A stretch of 64,000 bases of DNA from an uncultured Acidobacteriota bacterium (GTDB taxonomy: Bacteria; Acidobacteriota; Blastocatellia; RBC074), in contig CAWCKY010000006.1 of NCBI GenBank assembly GCA_963796275.1, positions 608,001-672,000 on the forward strand, in the 5' to 3' direction. Positions 29,902 through 34,520 of this stretch are shown here, in pieces. Positions within the stretch are counted from its first letter, which is position 1; each line of letters starts with the position of its first letter. Made by a program: the position numbers and the translations under genes. The notes beneath the pieces are model-generated. The model saw only the letters and a list, made by a program, of their open reading frames with translations. It ran no database searches and was not told the origin of the DNA.

Positions 29902-31305
29902 TTGAAGAGAGATGTAAAAATCCTGGTGGTTGATGATGAGCCTTCGATCACAGATGGCTTGCGGTACCTGCTTGGGGCGGAGGGATTTCATGTCGATACG
30001 GCATCCAACCTGAGCGCAGGTAGAGTGGCGGTCCAGGATCAGCCATATGACCTTGTGCTGACGGACCTTCAGTTACCCGACGATCATCACGGCGGGTTCT
30101 CTCTCCTGCGCGCGGTCAAGGCGTTCTCGCCGGAGACTGAAGTGATAGTGATCACCGGCCACGGTTCCGTCTCAGAAGCTGTCGAAGCGACAAAATCCGG
30201 GGCGTTCTTCTTCGTTGAAAAACCGTTTGAGCCGGAGCAGATATTATTGCTGGTTGAGAAGGCCCTCGAACGGCGGAAGCTGGTTAGCGAATCGCAGAAC
30301 CTGCGCAAACATTTCCAGCGTCGTGAATTCTCATACATTATCGGTGCTTCGAAATCGATGCAGATGATCTATGAGACGATCGAGAGCGTAGCCAAGAGCG
30401 ACGCCAACGTGCTGATCATCGGCGAATCGGGGACAGGTAAGGAGTTGATCGCGAACGCAATCCACTTCAATTCGCTGCGGGCTGATCGGGAATTCGTCAA
30501 GGTAAATTGTTCGGCTCTCCCGAAAGAGCTGATCGAGGCTGAACTGTTCGGCTATGTTAAGGGCGCGTTCACCGGAGCGATACAGAACCGTAACGGCCTC
30601 ATCGCGCAGGCGAAGGGCGGAAGCCTGTTGCTGGACGAGATCGGTGAAATGCCGATTGAGTTGCAGCCCAAGCTGCTGCGCGTGCTGGAAGAGCGGCGCT
30701 TCCGTCCGGTCGGCTCGACCGAGACCTTCGAGGCGGATTTCCGCCTGATCTGCGCCACCAACCGGGAACCGCGCGAAGCTATCAAGGAAGGATTGATGCG
30801 CGAGGACCTCTTCTATCGCGTCTCGACCATTACGATCAACGTACCGCCGCTGCGCGAACGGAGCGAGGACTTGCAGTTGTTGACCGATCATTTCTTCAAT
30901 ATGTTCACGGAGAAATATAACCGCCCGCTTCAGGGATTTTCGCAGTCAGCCTATCAGCGAGTCTTCACTCATCGCTGGCCCGGCAATGTCCGCGAATTGC
31001 AGAATGCGATCGAGCGCGCGGTGCTTCTGGCCAAGGGACCGCGCATCGAGCCTGAAGATTTGCCGTTCGGTGAACAGGCCGGAGAAGCCAGCAGCGATGC
31101 GTTCTATGTCCCACCCAATATGACGCTGGAAGAGATCGAACGCCTGGTGATCGCGCAAACATTGCAGCGCACGAGGGGGAATAAACAGGCGGCCGCGCAA
31201 ATCCTCGGAATCTACCGCCCGCGACTCTATAGTAAAATTCGTAAGTACAAAATCCAGGTGTCGCGCGAACCTCGCAAGCGAGCGAAGACAGCCTCCGAGC
31301 CGTGA
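29902..31305 (+). CDS. sigma54-dependent response regulator (NtrC family)
   Basis: receiver domain, GESGTGKE, GAFTGA, LDEIGE, WPGNVRELQN, C-terminal HTH. Confidence 0.95.
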   Translation: MKRDVKILVVDDEPSITDGLRYLLGAEGFHVDTASNLSAGRVAVQDQPYDLVLTDLQLPDDHHGGFSLLRAVKAFSPETEVIVITGHGSVSEAVEATKSGAFFFVEKPFEPEQILLLVEKALERRKLVSESQNLRKHFQRREFSYIIGASKSMQMIYETIESVAKSDANVLIIGESGTGKELIANAIHFNSLRADREFVKVNCSALPKELIEAELFGYVKGAFTGAIQNRNGLIAQAKGGSLLLDEIGEMPIELQPKLLRVLEERRFRPVGSTETFEADFRLICATNREPREAIKEGLMREDLFYRVSTITINVPPLRERSEDLQLLTDHFFNMFTEKYNRPLQGFSQSAYQRVFTHRWPGNVRELQNAIERAVLLAKGPRIEPEDLPFGEQAGEASSDAFYVPPNMTLEEIERLVIAQTLQRTRGNKQAAAQILGIYRPRLYSKIRKYKIQVSREPRKRAKTASEP

Positions 31306-31866
31306 TCAATTTTCAGTCGTGGCTGCTCAGCCTCTTCGCCGCGTTAGCGGCGGTTGATTGTAGCCGTGGGTTTTAACCCACGGAGTACTGGTGATCGCGC
31401 AAACATTGCAGCGCACGAGAGGTAATAAACAGGCGGCCGCGCAAATCCTCGGAATCTACCGCCTGTGACTCTATAGTAAAATTCGAAAGTACAAAATCCA
31501 GGTGTCGCGCGAACCTCGCAAGCGAGCGAAGACAGCCTCCGAGCCGTGACCAATTTTCAGTCGTGGCTGCTCAGCTTCTTCGCCGCGAACGCGGCGGTTG
31601 ATTATAGCCGTGGGTTTTAACCCACGGAGTACTGGTGATCGCGCAAACATTGCAGCGCACGAGAGGTAATAAACAGGCGGCCGCGCAAATCCTCGGAATC
31701 TACCGCCTGTGACTCTATAGTAAAATTCGAAAGTACAAAATCCAGGTGTCGCGCGAACCTCGCAAGCGAGCGAAGACAGCCTCCGAGCCGTGACCAATTT
31801 TCAGTCGTGGCTGCTCAGCCTCTTCGCCGCGTTAGCGGCGGTTGATTGTAGCCGTGGGTTTTAACC
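31144..31866. repeat. three tandem, diverged 244-bp copies (3' end of the regulator gene plus a REP arm)
   Basis: units start at 31144, 31388 and 31632 with ctggtgatcgcgcaaacattgcagcgc. Confidence 0.92.
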
Positions 31867-33261
31867 CACTGGTATCTACACAAGTTTTTGCGTTTGGTTG
31901 CAAAGAGTTATCGCAATCAAACCTACCGAAGAATATGCTCTTTGAATGTTTCTCCTCAAACCTCCATTTGACCCCCGTTTGCAAAGACGGTATGAGAGGC
32001 TGGTGAATGAACATCTCCATACAAGCGAGAATCAAGCTGCTGGATCGCGTGCGCTGCCGAGCGTTAATGAAGCGTTTGCCAGCACGCAAGCGGCCTGGCG
32101 ATTTTATGCCAACCCCAATGTGAAGCTGACGGGGCTGGTCGAACCGTTGGTAGAACAAGCTCGGCGGGAGATGCCGCTTGTCTGTCGACGGTATGGACTG
32201 GCGATCCACGACTGGTCTGATCTGCGCTACGGAACGCACACGAGCAAGAAGGATCGGAAAAAAATCGGCAGCGACTTGGGCTACAAACTGGCGACCACGT
32301 TGCTGCTGAGCGACCAGAGCGGGGCGCCGATAGCGCCGATCAGCCTTGGGCTGTGGGCCAATGATGGATGGCACACAACGCTTGATGAAGAGAGGCACAG
32401 AGATTGGTCGCCCCTGGGATTGGTGAGCCAGACAATGCGGGCTTCGCAGAAGCAAAAACTGTCGTTGCCGCTGGTCCACATCATTGATCGGGAAGGCGAC
32501 TCGATCTTTCACTATCGTCAATGGAATAGTGAAGGCCATCTGTTTGAAGTACGTGCCAACGGGGAACAGAGAGTTGTTTGGCAGGAGCGGACACAACCGT
32601 TGAGCCAGGTCGCAGCACAGGTCGCCTTGCGCGCTAGCCAAGCGGTAGAGATTTCGGCCAATCTCATTGGGCAACTGTTTGTGGGCGAAACCAGCATCGT
32701 CATTGATCGTCCGGCCTTTCCCCGCGCGCGCGACGGGGGCAAGCGTCAATGGATCAAAGGTGAGCCGCTCGAACTGCGCTTGATTGTCTGTCAACTGCGC
32801 TTGCCCGATGAAACGATTGCGGCTGAATGGTACTTGCTCAGTAACGTGCCGGCTGGCATCAGCGCTGAGCAACTGGCCGAATGGTACTACTGGCGCTGGA
32901 GAATTGAATCTTACTTCAAGTTGCTTAAAAGCCATGGTTTCCAAGTCGACCAGTGGCAGCAGGAAACTGCTGAGGCGATTGCCAAACGTTTGTTGGTGGT
33001 GGCCATGGCTTGTGTCGTAGTCTGGCACATCCAACGCGCAACGGATCCGCAGACGGTCACCCTGCGCAATCTCTTGGTGCGATTGAGCGGTCGACAAGTT
33101 CGGCGTGGGCAACCCACTGCACCAGCATTGTTGGCTGGGTTTTGGAGTTTCTTGTCGACACTTGAATTGCTCGAACATTATGACCTCAATGACCTTAAAC
33201 AGATGGCCCGGCTCATTGTGCCAGGCTATTCCTAACCGTCGGAAATGTGTAGATACCAGTG
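31867..33261 (+). mobile_element. IS4-family (IS50/Tn5-like) insertion sequence, 1395 bp, 19-bp IRs, 10-bp target duplication GGTTTTAACC
   Basis: IRL CACTGGTATCTACACAAGT (31867-31885); IRR reverse complement CACTGGTATCTACACATTT (33243-33261); direct repeats 31857-31866 and 33262-33271. Confidence 0.93.
31946..33235 (+). CDS. IS4-family DDE transposase
   Basis: FDPRLQRR, AWRFYAN, IHDWS, IDREGD, YYWRWRIESYFKLLKS (YREK signature). Confidence 0.93.
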   Translation: MFLLKPPFDPRLQRRYERLVNEHLHTSENQAAGSRALPSVNEAFASTQAAWRFYANPNVKLTGLVEPLVEQARREMPLVCRRYGLAIHDWSDLRYGTHTSKKDRKKIGSDLGYKLATTLLLSDQSGAPIAPISLGLWANDGWHTTLDEERHRDWSPLGLVSQTMRASQKQKLSLPLVHIIDREGDSIFHYRQWNSEGHLFEVRANGEQRVVWQERTQPLSQVAAQVALRASQAVEISANLIGQLFVGETSIVIDRPAFPRARDGGKRQWIKGEPLELRLIVCQLRLPDETIAAEWYLLSNVPAGISAEQLAEWYYWRWRIESYFKLLKSHGFQVDQWQQETAEAIAKRLLVVAMACVVVWHIQRATDPQTVTLRNLLVRLSGRQVRRGQPTAPALLAGFWSFLSTLELLEHYDLNDLKQMARLIVPGYS

Positions 33262-33578
33262 GGTTTTAACCCACGGTGGCTTGAAGGATATTCCCGCGTC
33301 GCGTTAGCGACGCCTGAATTCAACCGTCGCTGACGCGACGTGAAAAAATCTATGGCCACCGTGGGTTAAAACATGTTAAAACCCACGGCTACAATCAGCT
33401 GCCGCTAACGCGGCGAAGAAGCTGAGCAGTTAATTTCAGTTTTTAAGTTTTTAGCTGTGTTGATCAGCAACTAAAAATTAAAAATTCAGAAAAAATCTAC
33501 GGCCACCGTGGGTTAAAACCGGGTTAAAACCCACGGCTACAATCAGCTGCCGCTAACGCGGTGAAGAAGCTGAGCAAT
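33262..33578. repeat. REPIN-like nested palindrome (CCGTGGGTT..AACCCACGG family) with duplicated right arm
   Basis: central cgtcgcgttagcgacg...cgtcgctgacgcgacg; right arm complementary to 31811-31866; arm repeated at about 33342-33429 and 33489-33578. Confidence 0.8.
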
Positions 33579-33727
33579 TAATTTCAGTTTTTAGTTTTCA
33601 ATGAGTGATCTCGGTCGACAACTGAAAACTGAGGATTGAAAACCAATTAAGGTGTATAATTGTGACACCCTCTTTGAAAAATAGTTTTCGGGTTTCAACT
33701 GAAAACTGAATACTGAAAACTGAAAAC
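33431..33727. repeat. three inverted pairs of 7-bp repeats (TTTTCAG/AACTGAA family)
   Basis: at about 33431-33487, 33579-33645 and 33682-33727. Confidence 0.65.
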
Positions 33728-33746
33728 GGTTTTCCAAGGAGCCCAT

Positions 33747-34520
33747 ATGAGGAACATAGTTGCCTTCTCACACATTCTCGCCGCTACCTTATTTCTCACC
33801 ATCACGGGAACCGCACAAACTGCAGCAATTGAAGAGACGCCGGTGGAGTGGCGCATCACCGAAAAGGAGGTGGTAGCCGTTCAGACTGAACTGAAGCGCC
33901 GGGGTTACTACAATTCGACTCCCAGCGGCATCCTCGATCGTAGCACACGCGAATCGGTTAGATCCTATCAAACAGACAACGGATTGAAGGTTACCGGGCG
34001 TATAGACCGCAGCACTTACGAAACGCTCAAACTGCCCTATCCGGCAACCGGCGATGAGGGGGACAGCGAACGCCGCAGCGGCGTATTGCCTTCGATCGGT
34101 TACGGAATTAAAGATACGGTCGTCGCCACGGGACAGACACTCGAGAGCGCGGCAACAAAGGTCAAGGTCAAGACCGAGGCCGGTTATGATAAAGCGAAAG
34201 AGGCCGGCGGCGAGGCGGTTTCAAAAACGAAGGGAGTGGCCGAAGGAGTGGGGAGCACGACGACGAAAGGGGTCAGGGCAATCGGCCGCGGAGCGCAAAG
34301 AGCCGGCGATATGATCGTGGGAAGAAGCGATGCCGACATTCAAACCGATGTGCGCGAACTTCTCAAATCCGATTCTGAGACCGAAAAATGGTATTCCGAA
34401 GTTAAATCCGGCATGGTGACTATCAAAACACCTCAACAACACAACGGCAATGTGGGAACGGTCATCTCGGATATTCGCAAGATTGCCGGTGTAAAATCGG
34501 TTTTTGTGATTGCTGAGTAA
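33747..34520 (+). CDS. exported peptidoglycan-binding domain protein
   Basis: signal peptide; VQTELKRRGYY...G.LD...VRSYQ..NGLKVTG (PG_binding_1); A/K/G-rich helical middle; BON-like C-terminus. Confidence 0.8.
   Translation: MRNIVAFSHILAATLFLTITGTAQTAAIEETPVEWRITEKEVVAVQTELKRRGYYNSTPSGILDRSTRESVRSYQTDNGLKVTGRIDRSTYETLKLPYPATGDEGDSERRSGVLPSIGYGIKDTVVATGQTLESAATKVKVKTEAGYDKAKEAGGEAVSKTKGVAEGVGSTTTKGVRAIGRGAQRAGDMIVGRSDADIQTDVRELLKSDSETEKWYSEVKSGMVTIKTPQQHNGNVGTVISDIRKIAGVKSVFVIAE

Follow-up and report, generated by a model that had tools for sequence, protein, structure and literature searches.

The stretch of DNA analyzed here, called the window, comprises 64,000 nucleotides of an uncultured Acidobacteriota bacterium (GTDB lineage Bacteria; Acidobacteriota; Blastocatellia; RBC074), positions 608,001 to 672,000 of contig CAWCKY010000006.1 in assembly GCA_963796275.1. 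The host genome measures 9.46 Mb in seven contigs and is 94.7% complete. The window contains an insertion sequence (IS) lodged within a repetitive extragenic palindrome (REP), with two intact REP hairpins on its left and two empty REPs on its right in which the central 10 bp are doubled. We refer to the doubled form as a scar, as it probably marks a site from which the IS was excised. The features of the locus are listed below in window coordinates, with the strand where one applies.

31364-31383: intact REP hairpin CCGTGGGTTTTAACCCACGG, preceded by GTAG; unit 1 of an array with a 244-bp period; an equivalent copy folds at -9.3 kcal/mol
31608-31627: intact REP hairpin CCGTGGGTTTTAACCCACGG, unit 2 of the array; DNA fold -9.3 kcal/mol, z -5.35
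31852-31866: IS-occupied REP, left half, with stem CCGTG and copy 1 of the target site duplication (TSD), GGTTTTAACC (31857-31866)
31867-33261, + strand: putative IS4-family IS, 1395 bp, with 16-bp terminal inverted repeats (31867-31882 and 33246-33261)
31946-33235, + strand: predicted DDE transposase gene, 429 aa, with the Y-2-R-3-E-6-K signature YYWRWRIESYFKLLK
33262-33276: IS-occupied REP, right half, with TSD copy 2, GGTTTTAACC (33262-33271), and stem CACGG
33277-33358: spacer between the inverted REP arms, at the position taken by the Y1 transposase gene in the probable master copy on another contig (C4)
33359-33388: scar 1, empty REP, ccgtg-GGTTAAAACA-TGTTAAAACC-cacgg
33506-33536: scar 2, empty REP, ccgtg-GGTTAAAACC-g-GGTTAAAACC-cacgg, both 10-mers whole with an extra G at 33516

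A preliminary description, made from the letters of the window alone, had pointed to the TSD of the IS and to the two scars, and the sequences that it quoted at 31857-31866, 33262-33271, 33359-33388 and 33506-33536 are all present. Scar 1 can be parsed as ccgtg GGTTAAAAC-AT-GTTAAAACC cacgg, where each 10-mer lacks its joint base and AT stands in between. Its stem keeps folding (-10 kcal/mol) around an enlarged loop, and scar 2 folds at -11 kcal/mol. The pattern CCGTGGGTT-N(2-16)-AACCCACGG has four matches in the window compared with 0.00 expected from 100 dinucleotide shuffles. The locus has the layout of the C4 Y1 locus minus the gene, and is thus a gene-less REPIN-like doublet. On its left-hand side, the REPs at 31364, 31608 and 31852 follow each other in 244-bp steps within long, near-identical direct repeats (e.g. 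31500-31628 and 31740-31868). These units were therefore tandem-amplified along with about 200 bp of flank.

The ends of the window IS are CACTGGTATCTACACA (left) and TGTGTAGATACCAGTG (right). Its transposase matched Pfam DDE_Tnp_1 (PF01609; E 3.4e-6, 27.4 bits, cut-off 23) and, weakly and below the cut-off, the Pfam Tn5 N-terminal DNA-binding domain (0.0059). The best NCBIfam model was transpos_IS4_3 (6.8e-29), at 101 bits under its curated cut-off of 160. The segment YYWRWRIESYFKLLK, encoded at 32886-32930, conserves Y314, R317, E321 and K328, and we take this Y-(2)-R-(3)-E-(6)-K spacing around the catalytic E to be the signature of the IS4 family. Across 30 homologues at 47-90% identity, hand-picked from 2316 matches, D89, D181, E321 and the YREK residues show no or almost no variation. 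The AlphaFold model of the protein (predicted local distance difference test, pLDDT, 82.9; predicted template modelling score, pTM, 0.81) was compared with the Protein Data Bank (PDB) using Foldseek, and the five best matches were all Tn5 transposase (E 3.8e-16 to 3.8e-15, template modelling score 0.58, ~470 columns), led by 1MUH (E 3.8e-16). A phmmer search of PDB sequences found no transposase. Because the DDE and YREK residues, the IS4-family profiles and the Tn5-like fold agree, sequence and predicted structure place the element among the Tn5-like ISs of the IS4 family. Its inverted repeats are 16 bp long, and its TSD is 10 bp at 12 REP sites and 9 bp at a single non-REP site. At both ends, the outermost 6 bp of the IS imitate the outer stem of the REP, so that each junction between IS and REP folds (-6.7 and -7.5 kcal/mol) into a REP-like hairpin bulged by 1 nt.

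The REP is a short, intergenic, GTAG-tagged imperfect palindrome of high copy number. Exact copies with a centre of 2 nt number 53 in the host genome, and tolerating one mismatch or weaker stems raises the count to 59-63. Inverted doublets are frequent, with the two REPs ~103 bp apart, and many of 40 loci are such pairs. An intact Y1 (IS200-like) transposase frame of 154 aa is found at C4:611677-612021 between inverted tandem REP arrays, in the layout 'SSi [gene] iiiiS', and the REP/REPIN family probably has its master copy at this locus. A scan of the 115-aa matched part of the Y1 protein hit transpos_IS200 above its cut-off (2e-20), while the model REP_Tyr_transpos, specific to REP-associated tyrosine transposases (RAYTs), was not reached by the same part (E 0.0047, 16.8 bits, cut-off 80). 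A broken Y1 copy lies at C6:308723-308959 beside another IS. Other REPs hold non-autonomous derivatives of a related IS type, about 200 bp long (C7:472900-473400, C3:1550769-1550960 and C4:1435600-1435803). Their right end reads ..TGTGTAGATACCAATG, a hairpin lies inside them and the left junction has been deleted; they were amplified as parts of 266-bp tandem units.

A whole-genome blastn search revealed 13 full-length copies of the IS at 99.3-100% identity. Twelve of these lie inside a REP, flanked by ccgtg plus the 10-mer on one side and the 10-mer plus cacgg on the other, in line with the preliminary description, which had proposed that the IS repeatedly visits this REP family. The occupied flanks sum to 30 bp and the intact hairpin measures 20 bp, and the TSD is therefore 10 bp and dyad-centred. 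Thus, the IS inserts on the dyad axis of CCGTGGGTT-NN-AACCCACGG and duplicates the central 10 bp. The thirteenth copy (C3:1145081-1146477) lies outside any REP and has its own 9-bp direct repeat, GGTAAGAGC, which fixes the ends of the IS at CACTGG..CCAGTG and shows that the duplications are real. Alternative IS boundaries, which the ambiguity of a palindrome allows and which would give a TSD of 8, 12, 14 or 16 bp, were ruled out by this copy. Its site is weakly palindromic (ccgta..tatgg), its right inverted repeat is mutated and it holds two extra internal bases. It is probably the oldest of the copies.

Related elements make similar choices. A relative, G018, contains a 76%-identical IS with ends CATTGG..CCAATG in the same REP and the same register, and more distant related ISs in metagenome-assembled genomes (MAGs) of other Acidobacteriota also occupy palindromic sites. 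No scars were found in the available flanks of related IS loci in other MAGs. At some occupied sites (C6:1405046-1406440, G018 and locus L033) the two flanking 10-mers have their central dinucleotides in opposite orientation (AA versus TT, or TC versus GA), and one scar from a metagenome (L050) is a perfect palindrome owing to the same inversion. These inverted dinucleotides would be accounted for if inverted IS copies had recombined and exchanged flanks.

The scars of the window are not isolated cases. We scanned the genome for weak stems of the form CGTGGG..CCCACG, a pattern that does not preselect a register, and obtained 96 matches, made up of 59 intact REP cores, 20 doubled cores and 17 unrelated sequences. 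All 20 doubled REPs share the TSD register, in agreement with the flanks of the 12 occupied REPs, and the match in register that had been pointed out for the window scars thus extends to the entire genome. No REP doubled in any other register or length class was present among the 96 matches. When exact 9-bp stems were required, 14 of the 67 matches had a long centre, and all 14 of these consisted of the 10-mer twice. The genome-wide classes are accordingly 59-63 intact, 12 IS-occupied and 20 doubled REPs. The scars retain the stem, with a loop of 12-13 nt compared with 2-4 nt in the intact hairpin.

The joints between the two 10-mers differ among scars but fall only into +1, 0 and -2 types, and the varying duplication lengths and registers that slippage would produce were not seen. 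One base is added in 12 of the 20 scars, nothing is added or lost in four, and two bases are missing in the other four, of which two have no insert, one (window 33359) has AT and one has T. Counting an identical tandem pair on C3 once and reading all in like orientation, the 11 +1 events comprise five T, three A, two C and one G. The extra G at 33516 had been matched to the terminal base of the IS; since the added base varies among scars and can be any of T, A, G and C, it is poor evidence for a retained IS base and probably is not one. Retained terminal bases, palindromic P nucleotides of flank hairpins, snap-back synthesis and microhomology between IS end and flank were all rejected as sources of the joint base, because A and T are common, whereas these sources would supply either C or G alone or an insert of greater length. 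An 'A-rule' at the joint was also dropped, with A or T in eight of the 11 +1 events (p = 0.13) and in nine of 15 when metagenome scars are included (p = 0.31).

We next compared 100 bp of flank for 19 scars. For nine of these the nearest relative is an intact or IS-occupied unit. Another nine belong to three tandem clusters (C3 263772/263899, C4 611161/611341 and five C7 units), and the last is roughly tied between a neighbouring scar (58) and an intact unit (56). Together these represent at least 13 flank lineages, counting a diverged copy at C6 2522265. Both loop variants of the REP (AA/TT and TC/GA) have scars, and each scar doubles its own 10-mer. The heterogeneous joints, the two loop variants and the number of flank lineages together indicate that the scar-forming events were repeated.

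For the window itself, scars 1 and 2 differ at three joint positions, and the surrounding unit of ~105 bp differs at few. The suggestion that both derive from one event followed by duplication thus loses ground, and the contrast between joints and flanks makes two events more likely. One event with a later change may also fit, since a scar in a C7 array changed while its flanks stayed identical. Further to the right, window positions 33590-33745 are A-rich, with repeated CTGAAAA(C) heptamer-like units directly upstream of an open reading frame that starts at 33747.

DDE transposases cut their target only by strand transfer of the transposon ends, and the TSD arises when the staggered gaps are filled. 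An empty site with a TSD therefore points to an insertion after which the element was lost at, or within one base of, its ends. We consider it probable that the doubled REPs arose by transposase excision followed by non-homologous resealing. The proposal that donor sites are resealed and leave scars, already made for the window, gains support from the fixed register, the varied joints and the at least 13 flank lineages; excision is here inferred rather than seen.

The IS inserts at the REP dyad and doubles the central 10 bp. Under this reading, the transposase would later excise it exactly at its termini via hairpins on the transposon ends, as Tn5 and Tn10 do, leaving blunt donor flanks that each hold their own copy of the 10-mer. 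The flanks would then be joined without homology, usually after one untemplated nucleotide, sometimes directly and sometimes minus one base per end. The expected product is stem-10mer-N-10mer-stem, in which the loop would have grown from 2-4 to ~13 nt, and such a scarred REP may cease to be a target. None of the 12 REP insertions of the IS lies in a scar. Tn5 and Tn10 excise via a hairpin on the transposon end that releases blunt flanks; fold and family suggest that the present IS would do the same.

End joining of blunt breaks in S. meliloti most often errs by 1-nucleotide insertions, with deletions as the alternative (PMC6379672), and LigD-POL and Prim-PolC extend blunt ends by untemplated nucleotides (PMC8068969), as described in the available parts of these two papers. 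The joint spectrum of the scars resembles such joining, because it is mostly +1 with small deletions as the alternative. Following the earlier call to look for Ku and LigD, we found the second in divided form. At C6:240451-244117, a 537-aa protein with LigD_N and LigD_Prim-Pol domains (phosphoesterase, PE, and primase-polymerase) is encoded divergently from an ATP-dependent ligase of 543 aa with N, M and C domains. The ligase at C6:240-244 kb is a separate gene, and the two do not form a single LigD. A second ATP ligase lies at C4:854 kb. The arrangement resembles the mycobacterial LigC/Prim-PolC module, with no Ku adjacent. The LigD-type PE/Prim-Pol protein and the adjacent ATP ligase are the only dedicated candidates for the joining activity. 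Tentatively, Tn5-like IS donors could be resealed routinely in the absence of Ku, either by PE/Prim-Pol and ATP ligase or by a transposase post-cleavage complex that holds the flanks, a proposal that we regard as possible but doubtful. If it were true, cut-and-paste transposition would not be lethal to the donor chromosome and would leave footprints of the eukaryotic style; a repeated hairpin target would be a readable ledger of excisions, and a scarred REP would be immune to re-insertion.

We then asked how widely the doubled form occurs, using a pattern with 0-3 bases between the 10-mers. This gave 15 matches in the host genome, zero in 40 relatives and zero in 400 genomes sampled from the class, the last being mostly fragmented assemblies from which REP arrays may be missing. 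The reversed pattern, used as a control, had no matches in 401 genomes. The REP hairpin itself is present in ten of the 40 relatives, with 94 copies in total (17 in the unpublished G004 and 39 in G039), and the ratio of scars to intact hairpins, 15/53 in the host versus 0/94 in these ten, differs with Fisher p = 8e-7 (5e-6 without G004), where related genomes and tandem copies are not independent. Among the 40 relatives, none was a close relative with REP arrays, and only G018, with one intact hairpin and no doubled REP, has a close relative of the IS. Occurrence of the doubled form in relatives that lack the IS had been named beforehand as evidence against the excision reading; the form was seen neither in the 40 relatives nor in the 400 class genomes. 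It was found in seven unrelated metagenome contigs (three +0, two +C, one +G and one +A), which resemble the host genome at the hairpin only. The doubled form is therefore neither an artefact of the host assembly nor unique to the host organism.

Several observations weigh against excision and resealing. Ku had no match (PF02735, TIGR02772) in the 94.7%-complete host genome, and was found in just one of 18 relatives of the same family; canonical Ku-LigD end joining is probably missing or unlikely in the host. In the five-unit tandem array at C7:609970-610583, four units have a +0 scar and one, with identical flanks, reads GGTTAAAAC-T-GTTAAAACC. Scars can thus change after amplification, or units can be revisited, and this weakens the counts of joint types. 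Scars are not significantly nearer to IS copies (5/19 within 300 bp versus 8/63 intact REPs, p = 0.17), and local hopping was consequently dropped as an argument. In the IS copy at C3:262265-263660, one additional C separates the right end (..CCAGTG) from the 10-mer, which the excision model does not predict. The absence of scars from the class counts for less where fragmented assemblies may lack their arrays. Finally, four of 20 matching public sequencing runs were compared, as short contigs, with window positions 30800-34300; one contig contained the IS with 14 bp per side, no contig continued across the element and no scar was clearly spanned. These fragmentary contigs yielded no site that is occupied in one case and scarred in another, and excision is thus deduced indirectly.

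Two related junctions were also observed. The extra C at C3:262265-263660 is complementary to the terminal G, the base expected if an end hairpin were opened off centre, and a solo end of a related element at C7 473105 has an extra T instead of a C.

Of the other explanations, the one that survives best holds that the scars are a REP subfamily. One or two founder duplications would have been copied by the Y1 REP/REPIN machinery or by tandem amplification, after which the joint mutated. In its favour, three scar groups (C3, C4 and C7) are plainly tandem copies, the Y1 transposase gene lies between REP arrays that include scars, and one unit of the C7 array differs at the joint despite its identical flanks. 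A subfamily would not lead us to expect that nine of 19 scars are nearest by flank to an intact or IS-occupied unit, nor that scars occur on both AA/TT and TC/GA variants with the own 10-mer doubled in each, nor that the joints include all four bases as well as +0 and -2. It gives no account of the match to the TSD register of the IS, and it sits poorly with zero scars beside 94 hairpins in ten relatives. We consider this origin improbable.

Another possibility is that the centre of the palindrome was duplicated by replication slippage or by a hairpin-driven tandem duplication, independently of the IS, so that the TSD match would come from hairpin symmetry only. We judge this very improbable. 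Slippage yields exact repeats, whereas eight of the 11 +1 events have an A or T joint that no hairpin copy could template. The genome scan turned up no other duplication lengths or registers, and the doubled form was not found in the 400 other genomes, REP-rich ones included (G039, 39 hairpins). What such a process would account for is the dyad-centred duplication, which any symmetry-driven mechanism would leave, and the window scar at 33506, for which an exact 11-bp tandem repeat of GGGTTAAAACC is an alternative reading. Because the register is fixed while joints and flanks vary, the data fit neither slippage, with its exact repeats in varied registers, nor a single founder, with its one flank lineage and one joint.

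Causality could also run the other way, with doubled REPs as the preferred target and the IS entering between pre-existing 10-mers without making a duplication. The extra C before the right 10-mer at C3:262265-263660 is what one would expect beside the joint base of a doubled REP, but a joint base is lacking at 12 of the 13 IS copies, the copy outside the REPs is flanked by a 9-bp duplication of its own, and G018 has its IS in a REP and no doubled REPs. To our knowledge, Tn5-like DDE transposases act by staggered strand transfer and always duplicate their target. The origin of the doubled form would also be left unexplained, and we think this reversal most unlikely.

An assembly or sequencing artefact is scarcely credible. 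Some long-read chemistries do make errors at palindromes, but the same form occurs in seven contigs of other metagenome projects, the variable joints stand beside 59-63 copies of the hairpin that were assembled intact, and tandem units share identical scars.

The textbook view is that the donor of a bacterial cut-and-paste transposon is broken and then lost or repaired from the sister, so that excision leaves no trace. If the scars do result from excision, resealing of IS donors can be common in a bacterium, and resealing without detectable Ku points to an uncharacterised end-joining activity. Rates and histories of IS excision would then be readable from single genomes where the target is a repeated sequence, and ISs would reshape the REP families into which they insert. 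With its single transposase, its 20-bp target and its two candidate repair genes, the system lends itself to direct testing.

ISs that target REPs include IS1397 and ISKpn1 of the IS3 family, ISPpu9, ISPpu10 and ISPa11 of the IS110 family, and ISRm22 of the IS4 family (Tobes and Pareja 2006, PMC1525189, as far as its available text goes). Like these, the present IS is nearly confined to one REP family (12 of 13 copies) and to a fixed position in the palindrome. It differs from them in that its ends also mimic the REP stem, and in the empty REPs that keep the TSD, which the available text of PMC1525189 does not describe and where the word 'footprint' occurs zero times. A literature search for footprints of bacterial IS excision returned only papers on eukaryotic transposons and on REP targets, with subscription journals largely uncovered; a partly available paper on haloarchaea makes a hypothetical remark on an excision footprint (PMC3119063). 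REP targeting by ISs, the IS4-family ISRm22 included, is thus already known; what the host would add is a record of transposon footprints in a REP family of a bacterium without detectable Ku.

In REP/REPIN-RAYT systems, a Y1 gene is flanked by inverted REPs (Bertels and Rainey 2011, PMC3116915, in the part available). The host shares with such systems the GTAG-tagged short palindrome (GTAG-tagged REPs, PMC3733652), the inverted doublets, here ~103 bp apart, and the Y1 gene between inverted arrays. Unlike in those systems, the Y1 protein fits the IS200 model better than the RAYT model, and the scars are a modification by a second party that lies outside REPIN biology.

The IS resembles Tn5 and Tn10 (IS50 and IS10) in its Tn5-like fold and its DDE and YREK residues, and also in having terminal inverted repeats and duplicating 9-10 bp of target. 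The donor of Tn5 and Tn10 is lost or repaired from a sister copy, and precise or nearly precise excision is independent of the transposase. As far as we know, the outcome described for them is not a resealed donor with both duplications retained, whereas the lineages of resealed donors proposed here (at least 13) are about as many as the live IS copies (13).

The likeness to Ku-LigD nonhomologous end joining (NHEJ) lies in the +1 joints typical of blunt ends, in small deletions as the alternative and in the encoded PE, Prim-Pol and ATP-ligase domains (PMC6379672 and PMC8068969, from the available parts of both). Here Ku was not found and the domains belong to two separate genes, an arrangement shared with the LigC/Prim-PolC excision-repair module. 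The joining may therefore be something other than NHEJ proper.

A parallel in form comes from eukaryotes. Footprints of cut-and-paste transposons (Tc1/mariner, hAT, P and Mutator) keep both TSD copies with few bases added or lost and have heterogeneous joints, and the present scars likewise retain both copies with varied joints. They differ in occurring in a bacterial host without detectable Ku, in retaining no transposon-end bases and in an added base that can be any of the four. They differ further in that the target is a hairpin repeat of the host, so that the scars can be recognized without an outgroup.

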